64,000 bases of DNA, from positions 1 through 64,000 of IMG/VR virus record IMGVR_UViG_3300042514_001262, one strand, 5' to 3'. How positions within the stretch are numbered: position 1 is the first letter of the stretch; each line of letters opens with the position of its first letter. A program made the translations under genes and the position numbers. The DNA comes from a virus. The notes under the pieces were generated by a model. That model saw nothing but the letters and a program-made list of their open reading frames with translations. It was not told the DNA's origin and did not search any database. This document shows, one piece after another, positions 16,889 through 43,167 of the stretch.

Positions 16889-16891
16889 AAA

Positions 16892-24243: not shown

Positions 24244-24891
24244 TTAAGGACACAGAGTATAATTTATTATGGAACCACCGTTATCGACTTGTACTATGTA
24301 AAAACTACTACCAAATCCCATCTTAATATATTTGTTTACACCGTTGAATGGGTTATATAAAACTCCGCCCGCCAATGTTTGATAAACCGTTGCTCCAATA
24401 ACAGGTGTCAGGTTTGCTTGGCTGATATAAGTATAATAATTTACAATTGTCATTGTATCATTACAAGTATTTCCTGAAGAAACAGATAAATTATTACCAA
24501 TAGCATGATAAGCAACAACAGGTGTTGGAGTTGGTGTTGGTGTTTTTGTTGGTGTTATAGTTGGTGTTACAGTTTTTGTAGGAGTTACTGTTGGTGTTGC
24601 AGTTTTTGTTGGTGTTATTGTTGGTGTTATTGTTGGTGTGATAGTTGGTGTTGGTGTGACCGAAGTTGTAGGTGTCGGTGTTATTAAAATAACATGACCT
24701 ATTTCACAATTTTGTGTATCAACAATTTTAACAATAAAATCACTATAGTCATACGGGTCAGGCACATTAAAAGTATATGGGAATGTTGAAGCACTTGTAA
24801 CATAAACACAACTCGCACTCATAGAATCACAATAGTAGATGTCTACGGGTGTGTTAGCTGTTACAGATGATATAGTTACTTGTTCGCTCAT
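24244..24891 (-). CDS. small beta-domain plus PT-linker protein
   Basis: N-terminal domain ending KIVDTQNC, a TPT tract, then a C-terminal domain. Confidence 0.75.
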
Positions 24892-24901
24892 GTTTTATCT
24901 A

Positions 24902-25408
24902 TTATAATGGACTTGCCGTTGGAGTTATTGTTGGAGTCACAGTATTTGTTGGAGTAACCGTTGGAGTTATCGTTGGAGTTACTGTATTAGTAGGTGTAAC
25001 TGTGGTTGTTGGAGTTACTGTATTAGTAGGGGTGATTGTTGGTGTTGCAGTCCTTGTTGGAGTAACCGTTGGGGTCGCAGTCCTTGTTGGAGTAACCGTT
25101 GGGGTCGCAGTCCTTGTTGGAGTAACCGTTGGTGTTATTGTTGGAGTTACAGTTATTGTTGGTGTAACCGTTGGTGTTACATTTGGACACGGTTCAACAG
25201 AACCTATACCAGTTATTATACACCCATTGTCATCAATTATTTTTAACATATAAGCATCAGATGTATTATAAGGTGCCGGTATATCAAAAACATACGGTGC
25301 GGAAGATATGGTTGTCATATAAAAACAACCTGTGCCACCTGTTTGACATATATAAATGTCATATGGTAATTGTCCTGTAATTGTATATATTGAAACTTGT
25401 ATTGCCAT
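24902..25408 (-). CDS. small beta-domain plus long PT tail protein (paralog of 24244..24891)
   Basis: N-terminal domain ending KIIDDNGC; about 90-aa TPT tail with a 30-bp tandem repeat at ~25047-25132. Confidence 0.75.
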
Positions 25409-25411
25409 TTT

Positions 25412-27670
25412 TTAAGGACATCCGTTTAAAGTTAATGTGTAATCTACACCAACCACAGGTGGTGGGTTAAAATTATCTGCCCATGTTGCCCCCGGTAAAC
25501 TACCTAAAGGAACTGTTGATTGTAAACATCTTTGACCACCAGGAACAATTGGAGTATTAACAACTTGATATCCAGGACATGGTGTTGATAAGTTTGGTCT
25601 TATTGCCAACGAATGTCCAGTTGCTGTTGTAATATTTTCAAATAAATATTCATAACAAATTGGTGTGGATATACAAGTTTGACAATCATCATACTCTGTT
25701 TGGAATGCTGACGCAAAATAATCACCTGTATAAGTTAACGGTGTATATCCAATTGTTGCAATATAATTAGAACCAAATTGACCAAGATATGACCAACAAT
25801 TTCCACTTGAATCTTTAAATGTATTTCCAACAACACTTGTTATTGGTGATTGTACAGTTTGAATTACCTGTGTTGGAATTACAGGTTGTCCTCCACCACA
25901 TGTCTGATATACATAAACATAAGTTGGTGTTTGAGTTGGCGTTTTAGTTGGTGTTGGTGTTTGAGTTGGAGTTTTAGTTGGTGTCACACTAGGACTCGCC
26001 CCTGGCGTTGAAGTAGTTGTTGGTGTTGGTGTGTTCGTTGGGGTAATTGTTGGTGTAGTTGTTGGAGTAGGGGTAGTTGTTGGCGTAGGGTCAGGTAAAC
26101 AATTACCACATATTGAATATAACTGTGTAATACTTGTTAAGTTTGAATTTGATGATATGTTAGAATCGTCTCTATCATAAGTAACACATAAATTATTTCC
26201 GTTGATAACCGCGGACATTGTAATACCTGTAACAATTGGTATTCCATTAAATATCAAATTATCAGTAACATAGTATTCAACACCACTTACACAATCAACA
26301 AGGACTTTAACTGACACACAACTAAATGTTTCATCCAACATCACAAACGAAACTTGACCTGCAACTTCACAAGTTTTTGTTAATGTAACTGTCGGAGTAT
26401 TTGTTGGTGTCGGGGTTGTATTATTATAACTACAAATATTAAAGGTCATTCCAACATTACATGGTTGAGTTGGTGTTGGGGTTGGCGGTAAGAAAGATGA
26501 TGTAATTACAAAATCAACCTCATCACAAGGTATAGTCGGTGTAGGTGTTGGGACAGGTTCCCAATCACAATCAAAATAAGCCGTAAAGTCAAAGATATCA
26601 CAATTGATTGGTGAAGGTGTTGGAGTAGGACATGGTCCACTATTAAATAAATTCGCAGAAATATCAGGACAATTTGAATAACAAGGGTATGCGCCTTCAA
26701 GATAACAAGAACCACTTAAACTATTACTCAAACACCATCTATCACCTGTATAATATATTACACCATAATTGATACCGTCTCCCGAATAATAGAATTTAGC
26801 ATTATAAGTTCCAGCCTGTACATAGTTCCCACTATATCCTGAAAGTGATGGCAATGTCGTTCTTAGACAATATGTTGAACTACAAGGAGCAGGACTTGAA
26901 GTTATTGTTGGTGTAGGGGTTGGTGTTTTAGTTGGTGTAGGAGTTAGATTAATTGTTGGTGTTACTGTTGGTGTTGCAGTTTTTGTTGGTGTTATTGTTG
27001 GCGTTGCAGTTTTTGTTGGTGTTGGTGTAACTGTTGGAGTATTTGTTGGTGTTGGAGACGGGCATGTAATACAAGTCGCACAATCAACTTGAGGTCCTGT
27101 AAAGACACCTCCATTATAAATTGTTCCTGTTGAAGTATTAGCAACGACAGTCGCGCATCCTGTAAATCCACTATTAACAATATCCCAAACTTGTCCAACA
27201 GTTAAAGTACCGGGAACATTTTGAATTCTAAAAATGTTTGTTGGGTCACAACAATCTTGGAATTGATAGATGTCGTATGGTTCAGTTGGTGTGGGAGTTT
27301 GTGTCGGAGTATTTGTTGGTGTTTTTGTAACTGTAGGTGTTGGAGTGTTTGTTGGTGTTTCTGTAATAGTTGGTGTCGGAGTATTTGTTGGTGTTTCTGT
27401 AATAGTTGGTGTTGGGGTGTTTGTTGGTGTCGGAGTGTTTGTTGGCGTTTGACTTGGAGCTGGTTCCGCATTACATGTGGCACAATCAACATATGGTCCA
27501 TAATAATTGGTATTTGATATTGTTCCTGATATTCCTGTAGATTCCCAACATGATGATGATGAATAATCAAATAAAACAACACCTACAGTATAAATTGCAG
27601 TATCAACTAAAAAATCTTTAGTCGTCAAAGGAGTAGAACAGTTACTGAATCTTATTATTGCGAGTCCCAT
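25412..27670 (-). CDS. Cys-rich modules separated by PT linkers; putative virion appendage protein
   Basis: Repeated modules ending DCxTC (DCATC twice, DCQTC) plus ICGNC, with several TPT tracts. Confidence 0.75.
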   Translation of the reverse strand: MGLAIIRFSNCSTPLTTKDFLVDTAIYTVGVVLFDYSSSSCWESTGISGTISNTNYYGPYVDCATCNAEPAPSQTPTNTPTPTNTPTPTITETPTNTPTPTITETPTNTPTPTVTKTPTNTPTQTPTPTEPYDIYQFQDCCDPTNIFRIQNVPGTLTVGQVWDIVNSGFTGCATVVANTSTGTIYNGGVFTGPQVDCATCITCPSPTPTNTPTVTPTPTKTATPTITPTKTATPTVTPTINLTPTPTKTPTPTPTITSSPAPCSSTYCLRTTLPSLSGYSGNYVQAGTYNAKFYYSGDGINYGVIYYTGDRWCLSNSLSGSCYLEGAYPCYSNCPDISANLFNSGPCPTPTPSPINCDIFDFTAYFDCDWEPVPTPTPTIPCDEVDFVITSSFLPPTPTPTQPCNVGMTFNICSYNNTTPTPTNTPTVTLTKTCEVAGQVSFVMLDETFSCVSVKVLVDCVSGVEYYVTDNLIFNGIPIVTGITMSAVINGNNLCVTYDRDDSNISSNSNLTSITQLYSICGNCLPDPTPTTTPTPTTTPTITPTNTPTPTTTSTPGASPSVTPTKTPTQTPTPTKTPTQTPTYVYVYQTCGGGQPVIPTQVIQTVQSPITSVVGNTFKDSSGNCWSYLGQFGSNYIATIGYTPLTYTGDYFASAFQTEYDDCQTCISTPICYEYLFENITTATGHSLAIRPNLSTPCPGYQVVNTPIVPGGQRCLQSTVPLGSLPGATWADNFNPPPVVGVDYTLTLNGCP

Positions 27671-27836: not shown

Positions 27837-28019
27837 ATGAAACTTATTAAAACAATTGAAAACATAATTAAAGAAGCTGAAGAACAATACAATTCTGCAT
27901 GCGAGAGTTGTGTTACGGTTGAAGAATTGGACCGTCTTGAAAAACATTATAAAGATTCATTAAAATTGATGAAGCTTTGTAAATCAAAAGAGGAAAAAAA
28001 TAAAGATAAAAAATCTTAG
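27837..28019 (+). CDS. small helical protein (60 aa)
   Basis: ATG at 27837 is 4 nt after TATTTATT (27825-27832); contains LIKTIENIIKE. Confidence 0.6.
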   Translation: MKLIKTIENIIKEAEEQYNSACESCVTVEELDRLEKHYKDSLKLMKLCKSKEEKNKDKKS

Positions 28020-28867
28020 TTTTTCTTCATAATCGCTTCGCATATTCCTTTTTCGGAATAAGTAACATATCCTTTAACTTGTAACCAAGAATAAATTTCA
28101 TCTTTATTTTCTTGAGTCAGATTATAATCCTCAAAGATTATGAAATTTGGTAATGAAACTTTTTTCTCATCAATACCCATGATTAGTTGAGCGTCTAATC
28201 CTTCAACATCAAGGTGTAACCAATCAATATACCCACCACATTCATTCAAAATTAAATCGGTAATACTAATTGAATTTCTTTTAGTGGATTTGATTTCTTC
28301 TTTTTCCCAATGTCTAATGACATTTTCAACCACAGTATTTGTATATCCTTGACCACCTTCATAGAATTCAACTTCACCACCATTTGGGGTCACCAATGCT
28401 TGAATTTTCTTAACCCTTGAGTTTTTAGAATAATTGTATTTTAAGTTCTGGAATTGTTTGTCTGATGCCTCAACCAAAATTACTTCACAATCTCTGTTTT
28501 TTACAATAGGTACCCATTCACCAAATTCACCATCGTGTGTTCCAATAACTAATCCACGAGGGAATTTTCCTTTGGAAAGTAAATTTTTGTTGTACATCCA
28601 TAGGGATTTATAAAAATGGTTTCCATGCTCCATAACATCCCACACTTTTTTATAAATCAACTTATCTTTTGAATCAGTTACTTCTACATCAAACATTTCT
28701 GTATTCGGATATGTTGCAAACCAGCTATCATTTAATTGTGTTGACCACTGAATATCTCCACTAACATGTTTTTTTATTTTCAGGTTGAGTGGTAGATTTT
28801 GATTGTAATTACTTACAATGCCAACATCCACTCTAATACCTTCTGAACTGTATTTTACACTTATCAT
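28016..28867 (-). CDS. FkbM-like methyltransferase with an extra N-terminal domain
   Basis: LVIGTHDG, ILVEA, IDWLHLDVEGLD, IIFE. Confidence 0.75.
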   Translation of the reverse strand: MISVKYSSEGIRVDVGIVSNYNQNLPLNLKIKKHVSGDIQWSTQLNDSWFATYPNTEMFDVEVTDSKDKLIYKKVWDVMEHGNHFYKSLWMYNKNLLSKGKFPRGLVIGTHDGEFGEWVPIVKNRDCEVILVEASDKQFQNLKYNYSKNSRVKKIQALVTPNGGEVEFYEGGQGYTNTVVENVIRHWEKEEIKSTKRNSISITDLILNECGGYIDWLHLDVEGLDAQLIMGIDEKKVSLPNFIIFEDYNLTQENKDEIYSWLQVKGYVTYSEKGICEAIMKKN

Positions 28868-29412
28868 ACCGTATGTTTTTCAATAAAATAATTTATATCT
28901 GCACTCCACAACAACATTGCCTCTTCTTTGATTTTACTTTCCTCCCAATCCCACCAACTTATTTCCAATAATTTTTCAATCTGTTTTTCATCAAATCTGA
29001 ACTTGATATGTTTGGCAGGGTTTCCACCGACAACAGAATAAGGTTGAACATCTTTGGTAACCACCGCACCTGCGGCAACAATTGCTCCATGACCGATTTT
29101 AATTCCTGACATGATTGTTGATTTGGCACCAATCCAAACATCGTTTCCGATGATGATATCACCTTTACATGAAGGGTGACCCATTTGCATGTGCATACTT
29201 GCAATTTCAGGTGTAACAGGTCCCCACAATTGGGATGATGTTGTTATCCAGTCAGGTCTATGATTTGCATGTAAGAAGAAACTACAATCTCTACCTATTG
29301 AACAATATTTTCCAACTTTAATTTTGTAATCATCACTCCAAGAAATTATATTGACATTTCTGTCGTAGTATGTTCCTCTATCTGCAATCCAAAGATGCAA
29401 GTTTTCTCCCAT
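28864..29412 (-). CDS. hexapeptide-repeat acetyltransferase (CatB/Vat-like family)
   Basis: VGKYCSIG, H.PDWITT, KGDIIIGNDVWIG, IGHGAIVAAGAVVTKDVQPYSVVGGNPAK, RF, WWDW. Confidence 0.9.
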   Translation of the reverse strand: MGENLHLWIADRGTYYDRNVNIISWSDDYKIKVGKYCSIGRDCSFFLHANHRPDWITTSSQLWGPVTPEIASMHMQMGHPSCKGDIIIGNDVWIGAKSTIMSGIKIGHGAIVAAGAVVTKDVQPYSVVGGNPAKHIKFRFDEKQIEKLLEISWWDWEESKIKEEAMLLWSADINYFIEKHTV

Positions 29413-29413
29413 A

Positions 29414-30865
29414 TTACTTTATAGTATTGTGTTTAACTTTTTTAATTATATCTGTAATATCGTACTCAACTGAATCCATTTCAAGGATTACGGTGTGATA
29501 ATTTGTTTTGTTAAAACCTAAGTTTATAAGTTTGTCTGTATTCACGATTTCTACCTTATCATCAACTTTTACTTTAATCTCTTGTCCTTTCATTTCATAG
29601 AATAAAAGTTTAATTGGTGCACCAGTTTCATCATTTTTTTCAATATAGAATTTGAATTTATCTGTTGGTGAGTAATTGAATAAATCAAGATTTTCATAAA
29701 AATAAATCCAATCTTCAACAGGCGTTGTTTCAGTTGTATATGGTAGTTTTTCTTTTAGAATTCGTAACCATTCAAACGCATCAGAATCTTTTTCACTCAT
29801 GTAACTTTCTAACGATATTTGGGATATAAATTCCTTAAGATTTTCTCTGTTGAAAATCATATAATGTAATCCAGTTTGCCAAATAATGTCTCCTCGTTTT
29901 GACGGGTAGATACTAAAATCTTTATTTGAGTTAAATCCTTCAATTACATTTTCATCAATTTTCAAATCATATATCATATGAAAGAATTGGTCGTATCCTA
30001 AATTCAATGCAATTTCGCTTAATTGTTTCACTTGAGTTAGTCCTGCAAATCCATAATCGGGATATGTTCTTGACACTTTACGTTTTTGACCTTCAATATC
30101 CACATAAACCCAACTTCTCATCGCCCTTAATGGCCAATCCAAAACAGGGTTGTCTTTTGTGAAGAAAAAATAATCGCAAAGTTTTGTAACCGATTCAGGT
30201 AATGATATTGGACTAATTGCAATAACATCCAAACCATGTCCCTTAACCAATTTTATATTTTTTTCTAAAACATCAATCTTTTCTTGGGTGTCACAAAAAG
30301 TACTAATTAAAGCAACTTTCTTTTCCAGAACAGGTTTTTTTCTATAGATACCAACTGAGTCGTCCCAATATCTGTTTGGCTCATTTGGGCCTGAGGGTGT
30401 TGTGGTATCAATATAATGTTCAACCAATTCAATATCATAACCTAATTTTTTACCCCATTTTTCAAGAGCTTTCCAACTATCAATATAAAATCTCCAATTG
30501 TCACCAGGCCAACCGTGATATGCCCCATTTGATGGTGCTTGAATGTACATGTATCCACCTGGTTTTAAAACTCTACACATTTCGTGGAATGAAACCCAAA
30601 ACATGTCGTCATGTTCAAAACAAGATGATGATATCACAATATCCATTTCATTATCAGAAATTGGAATATCATGAGAAACTCCAACAATATCAACATTTGG
30701 TCCTTCTTCCATGTCCAACCCAATATATTGACCTTTTTCAAAAATTGGTTTCATTGTCCCGTTCACATCATATGAACCAACATCTAATATTTTTTTATTT
30801 TCAATATTTTTTTCACAATACTTGTGATAGAATTTTTCCGCGTTTACGTAGGCTGAGTGATGCAT
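29414..30865 (-). CDS. class I SAM methyltransferase fused to an uncharacterised C-terminal domain
   Basis: ILDVGSYDVNG, YIGLD, DIVISSSCFEH, RVLKPGG; about 300-aa C-terminal extension. Confidence 0.8.
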   Translation of the reverse strand: MHHSAYVNAEKFYHKYCEKNIENKKILDVGSYDVNGTMKPIFEKGQYIGLDMEEGPNVDIVGVSHDIPISDNEMDIVISSSCFEHDDMFWVSFHEMCRVLKPGGYMYIQAPSNGAYHGWPGDNWRFYIDSWKALEKWGKKLGYDIELVEHYIDTTTPSGPNEPNRYWDDSVGIYRKKPVLEKKVALISTFCDTQEKIDVLEKNIKLVKGHGLDVIAISPISLPESVTKLCDYFFFTKDNPVLDWPLRAMRSWVYVDIEGQKRKVSRTYPDYGFAGLTQVKQLSEIALNLGYDQFFHMIYDLKIDENVIEGFNSNKDFSIYPSKRGDIIWQTGLHYMIFNRENLKEFISQISLESYMSEKDSDAFEWLRILKEKLPYTTETTPVEDWIYFYENLDLFNYSPTDKFKFYIEKNDETGAPIKLLFYEMKGQEIKVKVDDKVEIVNTDKLINLGFNKTNYHTVILEMDSVEYDITDIIKKVKHNTIK

Positions 30866-30884: not shown

Positions 30885-30918
30885 ATTGAAATATAAACAA
30901 CCACAACTATATTTCAAT
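30885..30918. promoter_or_regulatory. 11-bp inverted repeat forming back-to-back TATATTTC promoter-like elements
   Basis: attgaaatata (30885-30895) and tatatttcaat (30908-30918), between the divergent MTase and GT genes. Confidence 0.55.
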
Positions 30919-30933
30919 AAAAGAAAAATTATT

Positions 30934-33210
30934 ATGCTAAAAATATTCGGTCATGGTTCTTACATTGGGAACACAGGTTACAATCAACACACGAGGGATT
31001 TTTTCAGACATCTTTCAAAACACTCTCAAATAAAGTTCAGAAATTTCACGGTTGGAGATAGTTGGAAAGGAATGAGTGAGGAACCCCATAATGGTGAATA
31101 TTATTTTAATGCGACCGACAGAAAATTACTTTACCAACAAGTTTTATGGAACAACGATAGAACAAGAAGTGATTATAAAATGTATAATGACCCATCAAAA
31201 GAGTTTTCACCTGACTTAAATATTGTTTTGTGTGAGACCAACCATAATTTATTTTATGATGAATACTATGGTCCAAAGATTGCTTATAACGTCTGGGAAT
31301 CAACATTACAGCCTGAAGTTTATTTCAATAAATTAAAAGAGTTTGACGAGTTATGGGTTCCATCAAAATGGCAAAGAGATTGTACAATCTCACAAGGTTA
31401 TGACCCGAATAAAATTAAAGTTGTTCCTGAAGGCGTGGATATCTATACATTTTTTCCTGAAGAAACATCACATGAATTAACATCGGACGGAAGATTCAAA
31501 TTCTTTTTGGCTGGTAGATGGGATTATAGAAAATCAATCAAAGAAATTATTGAAACATTCTTAAAAACTTTTGATAAGGATGAACCTGTTGATTTGATTA
31601 TTTCTGTTGATAATCCTTTTTCAGGTGATGGAATGAAAACAACCGAAGAAAGATTGGCACATTATGGTCTTGAAGATGAACGAATCAAAATCTTACATTT
31701 CCCACCAAGAGAAGATTATATTAAAATATTGAAATCTTGTGATGCATTTGTTTCATGTGCCAGGTCTGAAGGTTGGAACTTACCTTTGATTGAAGCAATG
31801 GCTTGTGGTGTTCCATCAATATATTCAAATTGTTCGGGTCAGTTGGAATTTGCTGAAGGTAAAGGTATCCCTGTTAGTATCGTTGGTGAAAAACCAGTTG
31901 ATGCAAGCACCTATAGCCATTTCAATGATTCTGTTGGAAATTATTATGAACCTGACTTCAAAGATTTAGGGAAAAAAATGTGGGAAGTGGTTACAAACCA
32001 TTCAAAATATAAACAACTCGCCCTAGAAGAATCCGAAGAAATTAGATTTAAGTTCAATTGGGAAAAAGTTGCTGAAATTGGTGTCAACACAATAAATGAG
32101 TTTTTGGAAAAACATAAAACAACTGAAGATACGAACCAAGTTATTGTCTCTTACTTGGATGGTCCAAGAGTGGACATAAAAGGAAATGAAGGTAGAAAAT
32201 ACTTTGTTGAATTTATTGACGGTGATGGTAAGGTTAGATATTCAGACACTATTTCAAACAACATGTGGACAGCTTGTGGTATCAAATATTATGTTCCATG
32301 GACAATAAGAATTAACGGTGAAGTTGTTGATAAGTTTAATATTGAAAACAAAACGATTTTAATATCACTTGAATCCAAATCTGTTGGTGATACCATTGCT
32401 TGGGCGCCATATTCCATAGAACTAATGAAACAAAAAAATTGTAAGGTAATTTTAAGCACATTCCATAACGAATGGTTTGAAGGTTCTGAATCTTACAAAG
32501 ATATAAAATTCATTAAACCAGGTGAGTCAATATCTTGCGACGCAATTTATAAATTGGGTTGGTTCAGAGACAACAATAAAGGATGGAAAAACTTCAACTT
32601 GCATCCAAATCAACCGAATTTAATTCCATTACAAAAAACAGCATCAGACATTTTAGGTTTGGAATTTAACGAAGTAAATCATGGTTTGAATTTCAAACCA
32701 GGTAAAAGACCTATTGAAAATAAGTATGTTGTATTTGGACCTCAATCAACCGCAGGTTGTAAAGAATGGTCTTTTGAATATTGGACAGAGCTAACCAAAA
32801 TGGTAAGAAATCTCGGATATGAAGTGGTGATTTTATCCTTGGAAGAATATCACATAAAAGACACTATTTGTATCACAAGTCGTGATTGGAATGATGTGTT
32901 TTCATGTTTATATCACTCCGAGTTTTTCGTTGGTTTGAGTTCAGGTTTGTCTTGGGTCAATTGGACTTTGAATAAGAAAACCGTAATGATTGGTGGATTC
33001 AGTCAAGATGACCATGAATTCACAAACAATACCATTAGAGTTTCAACTAATACTTGTATTAAATGTTGGAATGACCCAGTGTTAGTTTTTGATTCAGGTG
33101 ATTGGGACTGGTGTCCTGTGTATAAAGGAACTGAAAGACAACATATTTGTCAGAAATCAATTACACCTCTTATGGTATTTGGAAAAATATTAGAGAATTT
33201 TAAACAATAA
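30934..33210 (+). CDS. GT4 glycosyltransferase fused to an Aah/TibC-type (autotransporter heptosyltransferase-like) glycosyltransferase
   Basis: N-half: WES, WVPS, GRWDYRK, EGWNLPLIEAMACG (GT4). C-half: SVGDTIAW, PLQKTASDILGL, FFVGLSSGLSWVNW, VMIGGFS, CIKCWND..FD..DWDWCP..GTERQHICQKSIT (Aah/TibC Cys motif). ATG at 30934 preferred. Confidence 0.85.
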   Translation: MLKIFGHGSYIGNTGYNQHTRDFFRHLSKHSQIKFRNFTVGDSWKGMSEEPHNGEYYFNATDRKLLYQQVLWNNDRTRSDYKMYNDPSKEFSPDLNIVLCETNHNLFYDEYYGPKIAYNVWESTLQPEVYFNKLKEFDELWVPSKWQRDCTISQGYDPNKIKVVPEGVDIYTFFPEETSHELTSDGRFKFFLAGRWDYRKSIKEIIETFLKTFDKDEPVDLIISVDNPFSGDGMKTTEERLAHYGLEDERIKILHFPPREDYIKILKSCDAFVSCARSEGWNLPLIEAMACGVPSIYSNCSGQLEFAEGKGIPVSIVGEKPVDASTYSHFNDSVGNYYEPDFKDLGKKMWEVVTNHSKYKQLALEESEEIRFKFNWEKVAEIGVNTINEFLEKHKTTEDTNQVIVSYLDGPRVDIKGNEGRKYFVEFIDGDGKVRYSDTISNNMWTACGIKYYVPWTIRINGEVVDKFNIENKTILISLESKSVGDTIAWAPYSIELMKQKNCKVILSTFHNEWFEGSESYKDIKFIKPGESISCDAIYKLGWFRDNNKGWKNFNLHPNQPNLIPLQKTASDILGLEFNEVNHGLNFKPGKRPIENKYVVFGPQSTAGCKEWSFEYWTELTKMVRNLGYEVVILSLEEYHIKDTICITSRDWNDVFSCLYHSEFFVGLSSGLSWVNWTLNKKTVMIGGFSQDDHEFTNNTIRVSTNTCIKCWNDPVLVFDSGDWDWCPVYKGTERQHICQKSITPLMVFGKILENFKQ

Positions 33211-33408: not shown

Positions 33409-36400
33409 CTATTGAGTACAATTAGTATACGCCTTAAAAGTGTAACTAATTTTTACGTCTCTCGCGTCAGGTAAATCACTTACATTAAAACCTAAAAGGA
33501 ATAACACATTACAATCATCTAAAGTATCCTCAACTGTAAAACCTAAATTAAAACACGAAGTGTATGAGTCATCGTTTTTAAAATAATCAGTACGAGTAGT
33601 CAAATTATTTGTGGTGAAAGCGGTAGTAACTACCTCAGAACAAAGAAAATAATTTAAAGCAATATTTATCGCATTGGTTTCAGTTGCTCCTGAACAATAT
33701 ACAATACCACAGACCTCAATTTTGTCACCAACACTTAAAATATATGGATTTGGTATTCCGCAATTAACATATCGTGTACTTAAGGTAGGACTGTTTTGGA
33801 GATTTCTCACATTAAGGTCATATGAACAAGAATCCCAACCACATCGACTGTCCCCATACCAATAGTCTTCACTACTATTTGTTTCAGAATATGCAAAAGA
33901 ATGTGAAGCTATTAACCATTTTGAACCCACAGTTATATTAGCCTGACCTCCTCCACCATCTGTTGCAACAATACAACTACCTTGAAAATTCATTGCTGTT
34001 GTTGAAGACATTACAAATACATTTTCATCGTAGATAGTTAATGCTCCAGATGTTCCACTTGTTCCACTTGAACCATTAACACCACTTATACCGCTTGTTC
34101 CTGATGAACCATTAGTTCCGCTTGAACCTGAAGTACCTGATGAACCACTTGTTCCACTTGAGCCCGAGGCACCTGAAGAACCACTTGTTCCACTTGAGCC
34201 CGAGGCACCTGAAGAACCACTTGTTCCGCTTGAGCCAGATGAGCCGCTAGTCCCTGAAGAACCCGAAGTACCACTTGAACCTGAAGACCCACTAGTACCA
34301 CTTGAACCTGAATCACCTGATGAACCGCTAGTCCCTGATGAACCGCTAGTCCCTGATGAGCCAGATGAACCTGAGGTTCCACTTGTTCCTGAAGAGCCTG
34401 AAGCACCTGATGAACCGCTTGTTCCTGATGAACCGCTTGTTCCTGATGAACCACTTGTTCCTGAACTACCACTAGTACCTGATGAGCCAGATGAACCGCT
34501 AGTTCCCGATGAACCTGATGAACCTGATGAACCTGAAGCACCTGATGAACCAGATGAACCTGATGTTCCTGAACTACCACTTGAACCTGAGGTACCTGAA
34601 GAACCACTAGTTCCTGATGAGCCACTAGTTCCTGAAGAACCAGATGTTCCTGATGAGCCATTAGAACCCGAAGTACCGCTAGTTCCTGATGAACCTGAAC
34701 TACCTGAAGTTCCTGAAGAGCCAGATGAACCACTTGTACCCGAACTACCACTTGTTCCTGACGAACCTCTACATACACAATCTGTTGAAGTTATATCTGC
34801 GCTTCCACTAGTTACTTGCGGAGTTGTTATTGAGCAAACTTGTACGGTTTGACCAAACCCAAGAGTTAAACCTGAAGTACCACCAACACAACAATCGTCA
34901 TAACTAATATTGGTCTCAACTTCCTCTGCTCTGATACTCCATACATAACAAGTTAATCCGTCAATACCACTAGTTCCACTTGAACCTGAAGAACCACTAG
35001 TCCCTGAACTACCACTATTTCCTGAAGAGCCACTAGTTCCTGATGAACCGCTAGTTCCCGATGAACCTGACGAACCGTTAGAACCCGAAGTACCGCTTGA
35101 ACCTGATGTTCCTGAACTACCACTAGTCCCTGAAGAACCGTTAGAACCCGAAGTACCGCTTGAACCTGATGTTCCTGAACTACCACTAGTCCCTGAAGAA
35201 CCGTTAGAACCCGAAGTACCGCTTGAACCTGATGTTCCTGAACTACCACTAGTCCCTGATGAACCGTTAGAACCTGATGTTCCTGAAGACCCACTAGTTC
35301 CACTTGAGCCAGATGAACCACTTGTTCCTGAAGAACCACTTGAACCGCTAGTTCCACTTGAACCACTTGAACCACTAGTCCCTGATGAACCGTTAGAACC
35401 TGAAGTTCCGCTAGTTCCACTTGAGCCAGATGAACCACTAGTTCCTGATGAACCAGAAGAACCACTAGTTCCTGATGAACCAGAAGAACCACTAGTTCCT
35501 GAAGAACCTGATGTTCCACTACTACCGCTTGTCCCTGACGAACCTGATGTTCCATTAATTATACCTAACGTAGTTTGACCATATGAATAGTGAGTTGTAC
35601 CTTCGGTTACGAAAGTAATTGTATGTGATTGGTTTGATGTATTTGTAGATTGAACTTTAACTAATATCCTATCAGTAGTATTGATAGAAGAACCACTCTG
35701 AAATCCATCAGATAATACCATTGATGGATTTGGTGAATTTGTTGTTACAGGTACTGGGTCTGTTGAAAATAATAAAGTTTCAGTCCCACCTGTTGTTCTT
35801 GAATAAACTTCACAGAAAATATTAAAACTCGCATTATTATTTTCTTTATATGCGTGTAAGAAGAAAGACCAAATTCCCGCAGGTATAGTTGATACATTTG
35901 GATAATTTGAAGGTGTTAAATAGGATTGAATAGTTGATGTTACACCATTCGCAATCGTAACAGTTACCGTTTGTTGAGCACCACTTGTTGGTATAGGTGA
36001 AAATTCTTTATAAGGCGTTTGTGTTACTGACTCATTAAAATAATAAATAGCTCCACCTGAAATACCATTAACACCACTTGTTCCAGAAGTTCCAGAAGAA
36101 CCACTAGTTCCACTTGAACCAGATGAACCTGATGTTCCGCTTGTTCCCGATGAACCATTAGAACCTGAAGTTCCGCTTGTTCCACTTGAACCAGATGACC
36201 CACTAGTTCCTGAAGAACCACTAGTTCCTGAAGAACCACTTGAACCGCTAGTTCCACTTGAACCACTTGAACCTGAACTACCCGAAGTACCGCTTGAGCC
36301 AGATGAGCCTGAAGTTCCTGAACTACCCGAAGTACCACTTGAACCTGATGAACCGTTAGAACCCGAAGTACCACTTGAACCTGATGTTCCTGAACTACCA

Positions 36401-39400
36401 CTAGTTCCCGAAGAACCGCTTGAACCTGATGTTCCTGAACTGCCTGAAGTACCGCTTGAACCTGATGAACCACTATTCCCACTTGAACCTGAAGAGCCAC
36501 TAGTTCCTGATGAACCACTTGTCCCTGAAGAGCCAGATGAACCGCTAGTTCCACTTGAACCTGAAGACCCACTAGTACCACTCGAACCTGAGTCACCTGA
36601 TGAACCACTAGTCCCTGCTGAACCAGATGAACCACTTGTACCCGAACTACCACTAATTCCTGATGAACCTGAAGAACCGTTAGTTCCACTTGAACCTGAA
36701 GAACCGTTAGTTCCACTTGAACCTGAAGAACCACTTGTTCCTGATGAACCACTCTCTCCACTTGAACCTGAGGTTCCGCTGCTACCAGAATCACCCGGTG
36801 CTCCCTCAAGATTTATAGTCCAAACACAATACTGTGAATTACCGTTAAGTATTGATGTTATTTCAACAACAAACGCACCTGTTGTTGGGTTATACGATAC
36901 TATATCACCAGTAAACAAATTATTAACATCGTAAGCAACCAAGATTCCTTGCCCTATAGTCATACTTAAATTAGTAGTTCCTGTGAAATATATTAAATTA
37001 CCTATAGAATATGCCGAAAGAGTTAAACAAGTGTTTGATATTCCATTATATATTGGACTTACTCCTGAAGTCCCTGAACTACCACTTGTTCCACTTGAAC
37101 CTGATATTCCTGAAGAACCACTTGTTCCGCTTGAGCCACTAGTTCCGCTTGAGCCAGAAGTCCCTGAAGAACCTGAACTACCGTCAGTTCCGCTTGAACC
37201 GCTAGTTCCTGAAGAGCCGCTAGCTCCCGAAGAACCACTAGTTCCTGAAGAGCCGTTAGAACCTGAAGTTCCACTAGTACCACTTGAACCGCTAGTTCCT
37301 GAAGAACCACTAGCACCTGAACTACCACTTGTTCCGCTTGAACCAGAAGTTCCTGACGAACCACTTATTCCGCTTGAACCTGAAGTTCCCGACGAACCTG
37401 AACTACCACTAGTCCCTGAAGAACCGTTGGAACCTGAAGTTCCCGAACTACCGTCAGTTCCGCTTGAACCGCTAGTCCCTGAAGAACCACTAGCACCTGA
37501 ACTACCACTTGTTCCGCTTGAACCAGAAGTTCCTGACGAACCACTTATTCCGCTTGAACCTGAAGTTCCTGATGAGCCAGATGAACCGCTTGTACCCGAA
37601 CTACCACTTGTTCCTGAAGAACCACTATTTCCACTTGTCCCTGATGAACCACTTGTACCAGAAGAACCATCTGAACCCGAAGTACCACTTGAACCACTAG
37701 TTCCTGAAGAACCACTAGTTCCTGAAGAACCACTAGTTCCTGAAGAACCACTTGTACCAGAAGAACCATCTGAACCCGAAGTACCACTTGAACCACTAGT
37801 TCCTGAAGAGCCACTTGAACCACTCGAACCTGAGGCACCTGAAGAACCACTAGTCCCACTTGAACCTGACGCTCCGCTAGTACCTGACGAGCCATCCACA
37901 CCTGAAGTACCACTTGAGCCGTTAGTTCCTGATGAACCAGAAGTTCCTGATGAACCAGAAGTTCCTGATGAACCGCTAGTACCTGACGAGCCATCCGCAC
38001 CTGATGTACCACTTGAGCCGTTAGTTCCTGACGAACCAGAAGTTCCTGATGACCCACTTGAACCTGAGGTTCCGCTGCTACCAGAATTACCCGGTGCTCC
38101 CTCAAGATTTATAGTCCAAACACAATATTGCGAATTACCGTTAAGTATTGATGTTATTTCAACAACAAATTCTCCTGTTGTTGGGTTATACGATGCGACA
38201 TCGCCAGTGAACAAATTATTAACATCATAAGCAACCAAGATTCCTTGCCCTACAGTTATACTTAAATTAGTTGTTCCTGTGAAATATATTAAATTACCTA
38301 TAGAATACCCTGAAAGGGTTAAACAAGTGTTTGATGTTCCATTATATATTGGACTTATCCCTGAACTACCACTTGAACCAGAAGTCCCTGAAGAACCTGA
38401 GCTACCATCCGAACCGCTAGTTCCTGATGAACCTGAGCTACCATCCGAACCACTTGAACCATCTGTACCTGAACTACCGCTTGACCCGTTTGTACCTGAG
38501 CTACCACTTGTTCCACTTGAACCATTAACACCACTTATACCACTTGTTCCTGAACTACCGCTTGAACCTGAAGTTCCTGATGAACCACTTGTCCCTGATG
38601 AACCTGAAGTTCCAGATGAACCACTTGTCCCTGTACCACCTGTAAAATTGATTAAAACATTTCCACCACCTTGGTTAATAACCGTAGCACCTGAAAATGT
38701 CATACCTGTAACAGATGTTACAGTAACACCTGATGTGGAATCATATACCGTTAAAGAACCTGAACCTGAAGTAATACCTGTAACATTAACAACACTTCCA
38801 TCACTATTATTTAAAGTCAATGTTGAAGTACCGCTATTGTATGTTCCGCCAGTTATAGTTCCTGTGAATCCTGTAATTGTTACAGTACCACCCGTATTAT
38901 TATATAAATCTAAAATTTGTGTACCCGAAAAATATGTACCACCTGTAATTTGAACATCACTTCCCGAAAATATTCTCCATCTTGCATCATTATGTGAAAC
39001 ACCATTAACCCCTTCAATTGTGCTTCCTGTCCAAGAATTGATAAAATCTTTACCAGCTTGAGAACGATTGTTTACAATAGTACTATACTCAGAAGTAGTA
39101 ATAGCCGAACTACCAGTTAAACCTGTTACCGCATTCCATAAAGTGTCATAGTTCGGAATTGTATATTGATAAACAGTATCTGTTTCTTGAACATAAACCT
39201 GCATACCTAATCTTCTTCTACCTGAAGATATATTATCAGAGTTTAATGTAACAAAATCAGGTGAGAAAGCAGAACCAGTTCCTTTTGTAAAATTGATTGG
39301 AATAGTGTTTGCAGATAATTGAATGTTAGCAGGATAAGTTGTTGCCGTCAACACTAAATCTAAATCACTTAAGTTATAAACTTCCATGTGTCCACCTGTC

Positions 39401-39501
39401 TGTAATACAGAAAAGTTAGTACCGAAAGTGCTAGTCCTTACAACACTAGTAGGTCCTGCTAATTGAGCCGAAGATAGGGGGTTTTTATATGGAAATGACA
39501 T
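33409..39501 (-). CDS. 2030-aa Gly-X-Y (G-S-S/G-T-S) repeat fibre protein, collagen-like, with interspersed globular domains
   Basis: Five (GSSGTS)n blocks with Gly every third residue, separated by non-repetitive domains; N-terminal RRRLGMQVYV module. Confidence 0.85.
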   Translation of the reverse strand: MSFPYKNPLSSAQLAGPTSVVRTSTFGTNFSVLQTGGHMEVYNLSDLDLVLTATTYPANIQLSANTIPINFTKGTGSAFSPDFVTLNSDNISSGRRRLGMQVYVQETDTVYQYTIPNYDTLWNAVTGLTGSSAITTSEYSTIVNNRSQAGKDFINSWTGSTIEGVNGVSHNDARWRIFSGSDVQITGGTYFSGTQILDLYNNTGGTVTITGFTGTITGGTYNSGTSTLTLNNSDGSVVNVTGITSGSGSLTVYDSTSGVTVTSVTGMTFSGATVINQGGGNVLINFTGGTGTSGSSGTSGSSGTSGSSGTSGSSGSSGTSGISGVNGSSGTSGSSGTNGSSGSSGTDGSSGSDGSSGSSGTSGSDGSSGSSGTSGSSGSSGISPIYNGTSNTCLTLSGYSIGNLIYFTGTTNLSITVGQGILVAYDVNNLFTGDVASYNPTTGEFVVEITSILNGNSQYCVWTINLEGAPGNSGSSGTSGSSGSSGTSGSSGTNGSSGTSGADGSSGTSGSSGTSGSSGTSGSSGTNGSSGTSGVDGSSGTSGASGSSGTSGSSGASGSSGSSGSSGTSGSSGTSGSDGSSGTSGSSGTSGSSGTSGSSGTSGSSGTSGSDGSSGTSGSSGTSGNSGSSGTSGSSGTSGSSGSSGTSGSSGISGSSGTSGSSGTSGSSGASGSSGTSGSSGTDGSSGTSGSNGSSGTSGSSGSSGTSGSSGISGSSGTSGSSGTSGSSGASGSSGTSGSSGTSGTSGSNGSSGTSGSSGASGSSGTSGSSGTDGSSGSSGTSGSSGTSGSSGTSGSSGISGSSGTSGSSGTSGVSPIYNGISNTCLTLSAYSIGNLIYFTGTTNLSMTIGQGILVAYDVNNLFTGDIVSYNPTTGAFVVEITSILNGNSQYCVWTINLEGAPGDSGSSGTSGSSGESGSSGTSGSSGSSGTNGSSGSSGTNGSSGSSGISGSSGTSGSSGSAGTSGSSGDSGSSGTSGSSGSSGTSGSSGSSGTSGSSGTSGSSGSSGNSGSSGSSGTSGSSGTSGSSGSSGTSGSSGTSGSSGTSGSNGSSGSSGTSGSSGTSGSSGSSGTSGSSGSSGSSGTSGSSGSSGTSGSSGTSGSSGSSGTSGTSGSNGSSGTSGTSGSSGSSGTSGSSGTSGTSGVNGISGGAIYYFNESVTQTPYKEFSPIPTSGAQQTVTVTIANGVTSTIQSYLTPSNYPNVSTIPAGIWSFFLHAYKENNNASFNIFCEVYSRTTGGTETLLFSTDPVPVTTNSPNPSMVLSDGFQSGSSINTTDRILVKVQSTNTSNQSHTITFVTEGTTHYSYGQTTLGIINGTSGSSGTSGSSGTSGSSGTSGSSGSSGTSGSSGSSGTSGSSGSSGTSGTSGSNGSSGTSGSSGSSGTSGSSGSSGTSGSSGSSGTSGSSGTSGSNGSSGTSGSSGTSGSSGTSGSNGSSGTSGSSGTSGSSGTSGSNGSSGTSGSSGTSGSSGTSGSNGSSGSSGTSGSSGTSGSSGNSGSSGTSGSSGSSGTSGIDGLTCYVWSIRAEEVETNISYDDCCVGGTSGLTLGFGQTVQVCSITTPQVTSGSADITSTDCVCRGSSGTSGSSGTSGSSGSSGTSGSSGSSGTSGTSGSNGSSGTSGSSGTSGSSGTSGSSGTSGSSGSSGTSGSSGSSGASGSSGSSGSSGTSGSSGSSGTSGSSGTSGSSGTSGSSGTSGSSGASGSSGTSGTSGSSGSSGTSGSSGTSGSSGDSGSSGTSGSSGSSGTSGSSGTSGSSGSSGTSGSSGASGSSGTSGSSGASGSSGTSGSSGTSGSSGTNGSSGTSGISGVNGSSGTSGTSGALTIYDENVFVMSSTTAMNFQGSCIVATDGGGGQANITVGSKWLIASHSFAYSETNSSEDYWYGDSRCGWDSCSYDLNVRNLQNSPTLSTRYVNCGIPNPYILSVGDKIEVCGIVYCSGATETNAINIALNYFLCSEVVTTAFTTNNLTTRTDYFKNDDSYTSCFNLGFTVEDTLDDCNVLFLLGFNVSDLPDARDVKISYTFKAYTNCTQ
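34045..38637. repeat. five blocks of 9-bp/18-bp degenerate repeats (about 34045-34768, 34958-35555, 36056-36800, 37060-38096, 38357-38637)
   Basis: Higher-order exact units include a 63-bp period (35072, 35135, 35198, 35261) and a 180-bp period (37321 = 37501). Confidence 0.9.
36758..38356. repeat. ~300-bp direct duplication of a globular domain (36758-37060 and 38054-38356)
   Basis: Near-identical copies offset by 1296 bp, encoding SPIYNG..WTINLEGAPG. Confidence 0.9.
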
Positions 39502-39536: not shown

Positions 39537-40637
39537 TTATGATTTAGTATCACCTTTAACCCAGAAAGTCGTTGTTAATGGAGGTGAAGATGGTTCAGAA
39601 CACAATTCATTCATCCACAACACTCTATATGTTCCAACAGGAATTGCACATCCACTTGGAACTACCACATTTACACCCGCATTTATAACATCAGGTACAC
39701 CATTATCAATTATTGATGTTGAACATGCATTACCTAATCCCACATCTAAAGTCATGTTGGTCATTGTTCCTCCAACACCAGATAAAGGTATCCAAACAGT
39801 ATATGTATATTGAATTGATGGGTTCACTTGTGATGTTGTCACAGGGATACTACTAAAACTATATTGATTTTGAGAACATCCATAAGAATCAACACCCGAA
39901 CCTGAAGATTGTCGTATTGGACCATTCAATGTTGATACGTTTGTTATGAAATTACCAACAGACCCTGTCCAACCTGAGAATTTAGCATAAATTGCCATAT
40001 CTGATGCGTAGTTTAGTCCCGCAGGTGTTCCACTATTACCCCATCCAAAGAAGGATACCGCACCTGTATCATACATATATTGACCCAAATTATTCAATGA
40101 TGTTGGGTCTTGAGGTTCAGGGAATAAATAAGCACTGAACGCTGCCGGACTCGGTGTTGGAGTATTTGTAGGTGTTGAGGTATTTGTAGGCGTTGCAGTA
40201 TTTGTAGGCGTCGGTGTTGGTGTTTGTCTTGTTGGTGTTACAGTTGGAGTTTGAGTTTGTGTTGGAGTTGTAGTATTTGTTGGTGTTGGGCTTGGAGATA
40301 ATCCTGGTGTAGGTGTTATAGTAGGTGTTATAGTTGGTGTCGCAGTATTTGTTGGTGTAGGTGTAGGTGTTTGGTTTGTTGGAGTAATACTTGGTGTTGG
40401 AGTAGGTGTTGGAGTAATACATTCAACATTTACAAGAACCCCATTCAACATTTCAGTTCTTGTTTGGTCTTCATAAACCAGTGTAGAACCCAAATAAACA
40501 TTAAATGGACCTAAAGCGCTTGAATTAGATGTTAATCTGACAATATATGTTGAACAACCCGATACCGTTATTTGCTGTTCAATTTCATTATCACAACCAA
40601 CAGCATTATTGGTAACGGTTATAGTGTATGTAGCCAT
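39537..40637 (-). CDS. two-domain protein with a long PT linker; putative virion protein
   Basis: About 90-aa TPT tract between beta-rich, Cys-containing domains. Confidence 0.75.
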
Positions 40638-41028: not shown

Positions 41029-43167
41029 TTAACAAGTTAAACACATTATATCATAGACAATTATTAATTCAACAATAATTTCTTGTCCGTTTAATGTATT
41101 GTCACCAGATTTAGTGTTAATAGTTATTTGATTATTTAATGAATCAATTGTTACTCCTCCAACACCAGGAACAGTCAATAATAAATTTTTAACTGTATCA
41201 TAGTATAAGTTATCACTTGGTGCGCTAACCAATGTTGTACCTGTGAAGAAAGCATCGCTTGTTGTTAAACCTAATGGTTGTACACTCACATTAACACTAA
41301 ATACTGCAGATATCAAATCACAATTTGTTCCACCGCTAGTCAAATCGTTAAATCCTTCATTCAACATTTGAAGTAATCCATATTTTGTTTGTGATTGGAT
41401 TACAAATTGTTCTCCACCCATAACATATGTTTGATAAGAAACATATTGAGTTTGGCAATCTATATTTGTAGTTCTGCTTAATGAACACCCAATTGAATCA
41501 ACAACTGTTAAACTATATGTTCCGGCAGTTAGTCCTGTTATTTGTATTTGTTGTGGATTACCCTGAACATTATTTGACCAATTGAAATTAAATGGTGGTG
41601 TGCCTGTAGATATTAGAGCAGTTAAAGTTCCGTCCGAACCATTACCACATGAAGTGCTGTATAATGTAAAATCTAACGGGTCACTTTCACTAACATAAAC
41701 TTGTGTTGTTTGTGTACATCCTGTTGCATCTGTAACGGTAACAGTGTGTTGACCTGAAGAAACATTTGTAAATGTTATTGCCGAAAGTGTCGTGTTAAAA
41801 ACATTTTGAATCCCATCTAACGAATAATTGAATGGTGATTGCCCCCCATCTGTTTTTTCAACATAAACCGCACCATTACTTTGATTACAAGTTGTTCCTG
41901 TAATTTCAGTAGTAATTTCAAAAGAATTTGTTGCAAATAAAGTAATTTCATCCGTGTAAGAACATCCCGACGAATCTTGAATTACAACTGAATAAGTTCC
42001 TGTTGATAAATTACTAAATAATTGAGAAGTTTGACTATTAACAATATTAAGTGTGTTTCCATTGGGATATATTAAGGTGTATGTATATGGTGAAACCCCT
42101 CCAGCAACTGAAACGGTTATTGAACCGTCGGTACTTGAACATGTTGAACCTTGACTTGATATTGTAACTGAAGCAATCCCAAGTGGTGTTAGTAATGTTG
42201 TACTAACAACTATACTACAAAAAGCGGAATCTGTTACCGAAATTGAATAATCCCCCGCAGATAATCCTGAAATTGACCATGTTTGACCATATTGAATTTG
42301 AACATTACCTGTAGATGCAGAGTAATAATAAGGTGCAGTACCTCCAGTTATCTGAAGAGTTAAAACACCATCTGAAGAAAAACAAGTTGGTTGTGTCGCA
42401 GTAAACACACCAAACCCAAGAACATTAACATCAGTAACTACACCTGTTTGAGTTTGAGAACAACCCAAACTGTCTGTTACAACAACAGAATATGTCCCCG
42501 ATGTTAATCCCGTAATACTACTTGTTGTGAACCCATTACTCCATAGATATGTGTAAGGTGCAACTCCTGTTTGTCCAGTTACAATAATTTTTCCAATTGG
42601 CGTTCCCCCGCAACTTGAATTTGGAACAACATATAAACCATAATTAAAAGGTCCACTATCTTCCACAATAAAATCAGATGTCTTACCTGTACATCCCCCT
42701 AAATCTTGGGCTATCATATAATATGTTCCCGCAGTTAAATTGCCAAAAACTATGTTTGATGTATTAGTGTTTCCTGAATTTATGTATGTATTGTCGGACA
42801 AATATAAATAAAAATTTGTTGACGAATAATTTGAAGAAGATGTGCTCGTTACCGAACCATTATCCAAACCACATGTGGTATTTTGGACTGAAAGTACACT
42901 CGCACATACACCTGAAGAAACAGGGATGTTAATATAAAATTGTAAGTTTGTCGGTACGGTACTATCATTAACATTTACCGCATATGTATCAGCACTTAAT
43001 GAAGTTCTGATAGATGGATTAGTTGTTACAACATCAACACCCAAATTAGGTGATACCCATTGAACAGTATAGGGCGGTGTTCCTCCCGTTAGATATAATT
43101 CGACGGCACCAGAATTTGTATTCTGACAATCTCCCGTTATTATAATATTATAATTAAATGCCGACAT
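41029..43167 (-). CDS. SprB-repeat protein
   Basis: About seven units of C..(D/N)G.(I/L).....G..P(Y/F).Y.....L..G.YSV.V.D..GC. Confidence 0.8.
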   Translation of the reverse strand: MSAFNYNIIITGDCQNTNSGAVELYLTGGTPPYTVQWVSPNLGVDVVTTNPSIRTSLSADTYAVNVNDSTVPTNLQFYINIPVSSGVCASVLSVQNTTCGLDNGSVTSTSSSNYSSTNFYLYLSDNTYINSGNTNTSNIVFGNLTAGTYYMIAQDLGGCTGKTSDFIVEDSGPFNYGLYVVPNSSCGGTPIGKIIVTGQTGVAPYTYLWSNGFTTSSITGLTSGTYSVVVTDSLGCSQTQTGVVTDVNVLGFGVFTATQPTCFSSDGVLTLQITGGTAPYYYSASTGNVQIQYGQTWSISGLSAGDYSISVTDSAFCSIVVSTTLLTPLGIASVTISSQGSTCSSTDGSITVSVAGGVSPYTYTLIYPNGNTLNIVNSQTSQLFSNLSTGTYSVVIQDSSGCSYTDEITLFATNSFEITTEITGTTCNQSNGAVYVEKTDGGQSPFNYSLDGIQNVFNTTLSAITFTNVSSGQHTVTVTDATGCTQTTQVYVSESDPLDFTLYSTSCGNGSDGTLTALISTGTPPFNFNWSNNVQGNPQQIQITGLTAGTYSLTVVDSIGCSLSRTTNIDCQTQYVSYQTYVMGGEQFVIQSQTKYGLLQMLNEGFNDLTSGGTNCDLISAVFSVNVSVQPLGLTTSDAFFTGTTLVSAPSDNLYYDTVKNLLLTVPGVGGVTIDSLNNQITINTKSGDNTLNGQEIIVELIIVYDIMCLTC

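Follow-up and report, generated by a model that had tools for sequence, protein, structure and literature searches.

A long, almost proline-free Gly-X-Y fibre encoded beside a TibC-type glycosyltransferase in a lake jumbo phage, and its probable collagen-like nature

We analysed the first 64 kb (the window, that is, the whole stretch of DNA under study) of the 101,887-bp IMG/VR viral contig IMGVR_UViG_3300042514_001262, and above all a 6-kb gene in it that encodes long blocks of Gly-X-Y triplets. On balance we lean towards reading its product as a trimeric, probably glycosylated Gly-(Ser/Thr)-Ser collagen-like fibre, ~330 nm long and associated with the tail or baseplate of the phage. A first, sequence-only reading of the same letters had described an essentially proline-free 'serine collagen' and had proposed that a neighbouring glycosyltransferase stabilises it. 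The gene, its neck and its repeat blocks are:

33409–39501, minus strand: whole fibre gene, an open reading frame of 2030 aa plus stop
38641–38961, minus strand: beta-repeat neck, aa 181–287, with two 'ITGGTY..' repeats and a ~35-aa 'LTVYD..NF.G..GGG' motif
38353–38640, minus strand: Gly-X-Y block 1, aa 288–383, 32 triplets
37057–38100, minus strand: Gly-X-Y block 2, aa 468–815, 116 triplets, GAP at start
36049–36804, minus strand: Gly-X-Y block 3, aa 900–1151, 84 triplets, GAP at start
34951–35553, minus strand: Gly-X-Y block 4, aa 1317–1517, 67 triplets
34039–34767, minus strand: Gly-X-Y block 5, aa 1579–1821, 81 triplets

A strict count gave five blocks in which Gly recurs without a break at every third residue, 380 triplets and 1140 aa in all, in agreement with the roughly 1,100 nearly proline-free, Ser/Thr-rich residues seen earlier. 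The X position holds Ser 205 times, Thr 137 times and Ala 13 times; the Y position, where Ser had been noticed to dominate, holds Ser in 344 of the 380 triplets (>90%), Asn in 19 and Asp in 10, and Thr only twice. Two of the 760 X/Y positions are Pro, both in the GAP triplets that follow 'INLE' and open blocks 2 and 3 (the LEGAPG starts already picked out by eye), and neither Lys nor Arg occurs in the blocks. The Pfam Collagen profile (PF01391) matched 19 stretches with 486.5 bits against a cut-off of 27.2, a score driven largely by the Gly period. The longest run of Gly at every third residue spans 116 triplets, compared with a mean of 4.8 and a maximum of 8 in 200 same-composition shuffles, and X alternates between Ser and Thr (lag-1 autocorrelation −0.48) with no further periodicity in the blocks. 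At the DNA level, all 380 Gly codons keep GG and follow genome-typical usage at the third base, the tripeptide GSS is encoded by 27 different 9-mers, serine codons of both the TCN and the AGY type are present, and Tandem Repeats Finder reported only periods that are multiples of 9 nt, with matches mostly of 60–80%. With DNA repeats this degenerate and both serine codon families in use, the register is no slippage artefact and is under selection, not merely copied.

Using the N-terminal domain of the fibre as a query, we fetched 60 related viral loci and found Gly-X-Y repeats downstream of that domain in 54. Their ~10,160 triplets contain no Pro and no one- or two-codon indels, and their ~20,300 X/Y residues include a single Lys and two Arg. 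Unbroken runs reach 569 triplets (L019; 1707 residues) and 506 (L068), the total per relative reaches 760 (705 in the L013 fibre), and complete homologues of 1781–2796 aa are present on other contigs; as far as these sequences extend, the length of the collagen array differs widely between relatives. The two variable positions are filled asymmetrically: Thr, Ile, Val, Glu, Ala and Leu are nearly confined to X (Thr 6372 at X and 309 at Y, Ile 398 and 1, Val 144 and 0, Glu 108 and 2), and Asp and Asn nearly to Y (Asp 1 at X and 1270 at Y, Asn 13 and 273). An unconstrained spacer would not be expected to hold such a register together with such an asymmetry. The sequence-only reading had staked its case on conservation of the Gly register in homologues, and we found it kept, despite substitutions, in these 54 loci.

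We modelled three copies of aa 176–467 with an alignment of 22 rows and three controls. The model contains a confident trimer interface at construct residues 6–109, corresponding to protein aa 181–284 in the neck, with an ipSAE of 0.61 against 0.00 for the best control, a partner pLDDT of at least 62 and at least 70% contact agreement between runs. In calibration, 20 of 30 proteins solved as same-chain pairs and 1 of 23 solved as single chains attained the ipSAE mark, counts that are only roughly valid for three copies and a custom alignment. The model supports a neck that trimerises and sets three chains in register; because no Gly-X-Y residue falls in the interface, it is silent on the helix, neither for nor against it. 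Independently and by analogy, a trimer is also suggested by homologue L027, whose C-terminus is a Peptidase_S74 domain, an intramolecular chaperone specific to trimers. Trimer structure prediction, proposed earlier as a check, was thus informative for the neck and gave nothing confident in the Gly-X-Y repeat.

The gene facing the fibre gene encodes a glycosyltransferase (GT), as had been supposed:

30886–33210, plus strand: glycosyltransferase, convergent with the fibre gene; GT4 domain (aa ~111–404) plus TibC/Aah-type domain (aa 411–768, DNA 32116–33189)

Residues 411–768 scored 201.4 bits against TIGR04414 (cut-off 200), covering profile positions 4–371 of 374, and matched the TibC sequence of 4RAP at E 8.4e-32. 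The catalytic Asp110 of TibC ('GD' at 109–110) and its four iron-binding cysteines (iron-finger Cys339/342/358/370, C-x2-C-x15-C-x11-C), whose roles are described in PMC4358343, are all aligned in the GT. An identical convergent GT4–TibC fusion is present in L013, with a TIGR04414 score of 277.8 bits. By these matches the GT belongs to the only bacterial family for which O-glycosylation of protein serines is known. Enzymes of the TibC/Aah family use an ADP-heptose donor and form a dodecameric ring.

For the linkage between enzyme and repeat, we scored Gly-X-Y repeats of at least 20 triplets within 10 kb in 34 viral loci, each with a relative of the TibC-like domain at its centre. Such repeats were found in 17 of the 34 (15 proline-free and Ser/Thr-type, 2 proline-rich), compared with 0 of 80 control loci, which come from the same phage lineage and were chosen around ribonucleotide reductase (Fisher p 3e-11, a value overstated because the loci are related to one another and not independent). 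The TibC-type family is strongly linked to Gly-X-Y repeats in viral contigs. Consistently, a complete 309-kb relative with a collagen-less orthologous fibre gives no match to Collagen or to TibC in any part. No AIDA-type autotransporter lies near the GT gene; the adjoining gene is the collagen-like fibre. The TibC-like loci L078 and L079 lie beside a proline-rich Gly-X-Y gene (20594–21043, minus strand; 26 Pro in 50 triplets).

We also considered Pro-Thr-rich proteins as the GT target and set them aside: Pro-Thr tracts lie near only 4 of the 34 TibC-like loci, all four of which also have Gly-X-Y, which makes the collagen-like genes the better candidate. The window itself contains 11 Pro-Thr-rich 30-aa segments, and structural-module proteins at 21504–27670 and 39537–40637 (minus strand) bear Pro-Thr-rich tracts and share phrog_15511; such proteins are a possible second class of glycosylation target. 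Beside the GT gene lies a further set of modifying enzymes:

28016–30865, minus strand: three-gene set of a methyltransferase fusion, a hexapeptide acetyltransferase and an FkbM-type methyltransferase

These methyl- and acetyltransferases may tailor the glycan. The hexapeptide acetyltransferase (28864–29412, minus strand) is CatB/Vat-like at 150.8 bits, far below the 350-bit cut-off, and its place between two methyltransferase genes beside the GT makes it likelier a sugar O-acetyltransferase than a resistance gene.

Around the blocks, the fibre consists of an anchor, four knobs, a repeated neck motif and a head:

38962–39501, minus strand: N-terminal anchor domain, aa 1–180; 56–88% identity in 60 viral loci
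38101–38352, minus strand: knob NC2, aa 384–467, LEGAPG at its end; duplicated as NC3 (84 aa)
36805–37056, minus strand: knob NC3, aa 816–899; 84 aa, duplicate of NC2
35554–36048, minus strand: knob NC4, aa 1152–1316 (165 aa); likewise between collagen blocks in L013 and L016
34768–34950, minus strand: knob NC5, aa 1518–1578 (61 aa), small and Cys-rich
33919–34038, minus strand: second copy of the neck motif (~35 aa), aa 1822–1861, directly after block 5
33412–33918, minus strand: C-terminal Cys-rich jelly-roll head, aa 1862–2030, of TNF-like topology; probable receptor-binding tip

In the related loci the anchor is always preceded by the same upstream genes. A search of a large protein database with the anchor returned at least 120 relatives of 1116–3553 aa, none with Gly-X-Y among the matches listed and some bearing Peptidase_S74 or beta-propeller domains; because it heads many collagen-less large fibres, it is best seen as a shared virion anchor. 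These relatives are no guide to the frequency of the collagen form, as contigs usually break inside the repeat. The anchor matched no known baseplate-binding domain in Pfam, PHROGs or the PDB (chance matches only in the PDB profile search), its monomer model was too poor for a structure search (pLDDT 57.8), and ESM Atlas returned only unnamed viral clusters for it and for NC4.

The two copies of the neck motif match each other at E 4e-5 and bracket the collagen array. The motif ('..V.DEG..L.....LNF.G..V..TD.G.GQA.IT..') also occurs in tandem arrays of 5–9 copies in P0138, P0149, P0157, P0164 and P0167 and, having no Pfam match, looks like an undescribed fibre-shaft repeat. The head has 86 relatives by sequence search, and its alignment gave no match among PDB profiles. 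Its model (pLDDT 91.8) is a jelly roll with structural matches at Z 8–9 to TNF-family ligands, the PRD1 P5 head, cyanophage fibre tips and viral capsid jelly rolls; since such values are common among jelly rolls, our claim goes no further than a jelly roll with TNF-like topology. P0135 and P0140 lack collagen, their neck joining the same head directly, so that the collagen-plus-knob array looks like a module for extension that has been placed after the neck and before the head.

In the working that we propose, the conserved N-terminal ~180 aa would dock the fibre on the virion, as their conservation and synteny suggest, and the neck (aa 181–287) would trimerise and put three chains in register, as modelled. 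The five blocks would then zip into collagen-type triple helices, to which the strict Gly register, kept by selection, and the X/Y asymmetry point. At the collagen rise of 0.286 nm per residue, 1140 residues would give a thin rod of ~330 nm in total, interrupted by four globular knobs that may serve as hinges or extra binding sites. The second neck motif and the Cys-rich head would form the tip, with a predicted fold and a putative receptor-binding function. In the host cytoplasm, the GT4 plus TibC/Aah-type enzyme would O-glycosylate the rod serines, as its family and gene linkage suggest, the TibC-like domain starting the glycan, the GT4 domain extending it and the methyl- and acetyltransferases perhaps tailoring it. 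The sugar coat would take the place of proline and charge pairs and provide stiffness, hydration and protease protection.

Several observations weigh against a glycosylated triple helix on the tail. Host–guest work ranks Ser and Thr with the residues less favoured at X/Y. Pro and Lys/Arg–Asp/Glu pairs, the documented stabilisers of bacterial and phage collagens (PMC8968730, PMC3368898), are absent here, the blocks having no Pro beyond the two GAP triplets and no such pairs, and Thr stands at X, as opposed to Y in the glycosylated Riftia and BclA repeats. The trimer model (aa 176–467) leaves both the Gly-X-Y block and NC2 without confident contacts. On the side of the enzyme, the GT passes the TIGR04414 cut-off only narrowly, the known TibC substrates are beta-helical autotransporters and not collagens, and 17 of the 34 TibC-like loci have no nearby Gly-X-Y, though many of these are truncated at one end. 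In record G003, which is 50% complete, two collagen genes stand right at the end and the available part contains no TibC, and gmhA and hldE (ADP-heptose) were not found in the 102-kb contig, about one-third of the genome. With no gp7–gp12 assignment from Pfam for the genes between gp6 and the fibre, the virion attachment site comes from gene order only. Finally, none of the short-read contigs reaches across an entire repeat block; the number of triplets per block therefore rests on the original assembly and is provisional. Of the sugar-stabilised triple helix first proposed, the true collagen register, a predicted trimeric neck and a serine O-glycosylating GT family linked to the repeats have stood; confident model contacts in the tracts have not been forthcoming.

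The strongest competing explanation keeps the trimeric fibre and makes its tracts non-helical: flexible, heavily O-glycosylated, mucin-like tethers between the knobs, with the G-S-S/G-T-S period kept as an acceptor motif for the GT or for an extended, soluble chain. The lack of proline and charge pairing, the trimer model without confident contacts in the repeat and the Pro-Thr-rich linker proteins nearby in the same phages all suit such tethers, and the linkage to a serine O-glycosyltransferase fits them equally well. However, a disordered linker needs no exact Gly period over up to 569 triplets, indel-free in ~10,160; beta-branched residues and Glu at X and Asp/Asn at Y imply two structurally distinct positions; the tracts are flanked by trimeric modules in register; and the known TibC acceptor motifs are other than Gly-X-Y (PMC4358343). 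We consider these tethers somewhat improbable, while taking them seriously. A polyglycine-II/polyproline-II helix bundle of the kind found in the snow-flea antifreeze protein, which had been raised as an alternative fold, now seems very unlikely. Gly at every third residue is compatible with it, and Gly-rich polyproline-II-type domains are reportedly present in phage adhesins, such as the tip of the S16 adhesin gp38, but known bundles consist of short segments joined by turns. Here the runs extend over 96–348 residues, and in L019 over up to 1707, are not interrupted at regular intervals and show no autocorrelation past lag 1, and the composition is Ser/Thr-rich, not Gly-Gly-rich.

The same structure might also sit elsewhere on the virion, as a fibre of the head or neck (a tether of the whisker or decoration type that adsorbs to particles or cells) and not as a baseplate tail fibre. 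The T4 whisker gene wac comes after gp12 in the same module, the N-terminal domain has no match to known baseplate-binding domains, and the protein encoded at 41029–43167 has Hoc-like/SprB Ig-type repeats with the PHROG annotation 'Hoc-like head decoration'. We nevertheless think this placement unlikely: the same C-terminal head and neck end ordinary fibres, the module opens with baseplate wedge genes, and the Peptidase_S74 chaperone of one homologue, L027 (33.4 bits, cut-off 22), is of the kind usual in tail fibres and spikes, alongside PHROG tail-fibre matches. Least probable of all is an assembly artefact, by repeat collapse or expansion or as a multi-phage chimera. It would account for the stopping of most related contigs inside the repeat, the want of a short-read contig across any block and the depth that repeat bins draw from many other phages. 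Yet the unique parts (both flanks, the N-terminal domain, NC3, NC4 and NC5) recur with 0 differences and at similar depth (9–25) in lake runs from 2020–2024, the 6-kb frame is open throughout with genome-typical codon usage, and the complete homologues stand on other contigs. The doubt is limited to the triplet count per block and leaves the architecture unaffected.

Collagen-like phage fibres are already known (PMC1079782, PMC3368898), among them the 'bacteriophage collagen' tail fibres of phages and prophages (Smith et al. 1998, as cited in PMC1079782). Prochlorococcus phage P-SSM2 orf28 is collagen-like with Ser/Thr among its X/Y residues (PMC1079782), and EPclA of an E. coli O157:H7 prophage forms a trimer with a triple-helix melting temperature (Tm) of 42 °C and a dumbbell shape in electron microscopy (PMC3368898). 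Like EPclA/EPclB and orf28, the product described here places Gly-X-Y tracts between globular trimerising end domains in a phage fibre. EPclA is short and unglycosylated, rich in charged residues and, at X, in Pro (PMC3368898), whereas the window fibre has 2 Pro in 760 X/Y positions, no basic residues and 380 triplets (up to 760 in relatives), and adjoins a dedicated protein glycosyltransferase gene. Phage-fibre end domains of the PfN/PCoil/PfC type gave no match when the N- and C-terminal domains were searched against Pfam, PHROGs and PDB profiles, no coiled-coil prediction having been run.

BclA of the Bacillus anthracis exosporium (PDB 1WCK) and Riftia cuticle collagen are likewise hydroxyproline-free, Thr-rich and collagen-like, and carry O-linked sugars. 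BclA weakly matches the repeat in sequence (E 1.7e-4) and ends in a trimeric C1q/TNF-like jelly-roll head; the head here is a predicted jelly roll whose Z is equally good to viral capsids. The BclA and Riftia repeats are Gly-Pro-Thr-like, with Pro at X and Thr next to it at Y (PMC8968730), in contrast to Thr at X, Ser at Y and no Pro here, so that the analogy to Riftia drawn earlier is a loose one; sugars and enzymes differ as well, and the present repeat is phage-encoded and many times longer. As in the TibC–TibA and Aah–AIDA-I pairs of E. coli (PDB 4RAP/4RB4; PMC4358343), the enzyme gene stands beside that of a long, repetitive, Ser-rich surface protein, here a presumed target of hyperglycosylation in the cytoplasm. 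Unlike in those pairs, the presumed substrate is a collagen-register fibre and not a beta-helical autotransporter, and the enzyme is GT4-fused and viral. The shaft of the PRD1 spike P5 holds a short collagen-like motif. P5 (PDB 1YQ5/1YQ8) is a trimeric fibre with a TNF-like jelly-roll head, resembling the one predicted here (Z 8.0–8.5, a value common for jelly rolls), but has 340 aa, few Gly-X-Y triplets and no sequence similarity to the window fibre. Mycobacteriophage GTs decorate their own virion proteins (Freeman et al. 2023, PMC10527164, as cited in PMC12619734); in the part of that work relayed there, the targets are C-termini of capsid and tail-tube subunits, the GTs are of other families and no collagen repeats are involved.

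What is new is the chemistry without proline or charge pairs, with Thr at X and not Y, together with the sheer length of the repeat and its link to a TibC-type GT; we found no literature on such collagen chemistry or on phage TibC homologues, which is no proof of absence. Established collagen stabilisation relies on imino acids in animals and on charge pairs or hydration in bacteria. To our knowledge, every triple helix studied so far leans on Pro/Hyp, charge pairs or glycosylated Thr beside Pro. Tentatively, and as a possibility that we would not bet on, we suggest a third mode, in which a charge-free and proline-free (Gly-Ser/Thr-Ser)n chain would fold or stiffen only after dense TibC-type O-glycosylation, yielding sugar-sheathed threads of 0.3–0.65 micrometre whose length would be set by repeat number.

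The CheckV completeness of the contig is 33%, which implies a genome of roughly 300 kb. Its markers include gp25- and gp6-like baseplate wedge proteins and a UvsX-like recombinase, along with genes for an SbcC-like nuclease, for ribonucleotide reductase and for DnaB- and primase-like proteins; this gene content marks the source, an uncultured freshwater (lake) phage, as a jumbo myophage of T4-like type. At least 60% of the sampled words of the stretch were found in 19 lake-water DNA runs. The fibre gene is the last of a co-directional module whose first genes are the gp25- and gp6-like wedge genes, and the gene order upstream of it is kept in relatives. The next gene but one upstream (41029–43167, minus strand; the 366-aa gene 39537–40637 lies between, and relatives keep this synteny) encodes a 712-aa protein in which Pfam finds five SprB repeats (88.5 bits) and which has Hoc-like matches in PHROGs. 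The SprB repeats in this adjoining structural gene hint at a host among the Bacteroidota, which we regard as probable. Terminator and promoter scans around the fibre gene gave nothing above chance, and cultured phages gave no match to the module DNA or, as protein, to the N- and C-terminal domains.

About 48 of the 60 related contigs (L009–L068) stop inside the Gly-X-Y tract, which marks it as a systematic short-read break point and implies that such genes are under-counted in protein databases. In three lake DNA runs, bins in the repeat (34000–38600) reached a summed depth of ~350 to 17,000, compared with ~5–25 in the unique flanks; this excess indicates that many other genomes in these lakes contribute such repeat DNA, and many read joints within the repeat stem from other phages' repeats. 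Run X20 is a metatranscriptome library with a marine label; what it contains is not this sequence but one closely related to the flanks and knobs (18–34 differences per piece), and it is no demonstration of transcription. Long open reading frames in other frames or on the opposite strand over the repeat (36983–38230, plus; 38279–38953, plus; 34086–34778, minus; and others) are by-products of low-complexity DNA and no genes, as in L068. Directly downstream of the fibre gene, relatives carry a second collagen-like gene family (L068:17230–20841 and L019:19727–20848), with a ~105-aa N-terminal domain ('MANEFVARKG...IYVIKNSGNG...') followed by proline-free Gly-X-Y that runs off the contig (at least 367 triplets in L068 and at least 89 in L019); it was not found in the 102 kb of the present genome.

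If the fibre is a sugar-stabilised triple helix, a helix of Gly, Ser and Thr only over hundreds of triplets would shift the accepted sequence limits of the fold, in a form common in lake viromes, and TibC-type protein heptosyltransferases would gain a second substrate class beyond pathogen adhesins. Recombinant collagen materials would also gain a scaffold that needs no hydroxylase and might be tuned by its sugars. For the phages themselves, such a fibre suggests that giant lake phages reach their hosts by threads several times the length of the tail, with a reach varied by repeat number.

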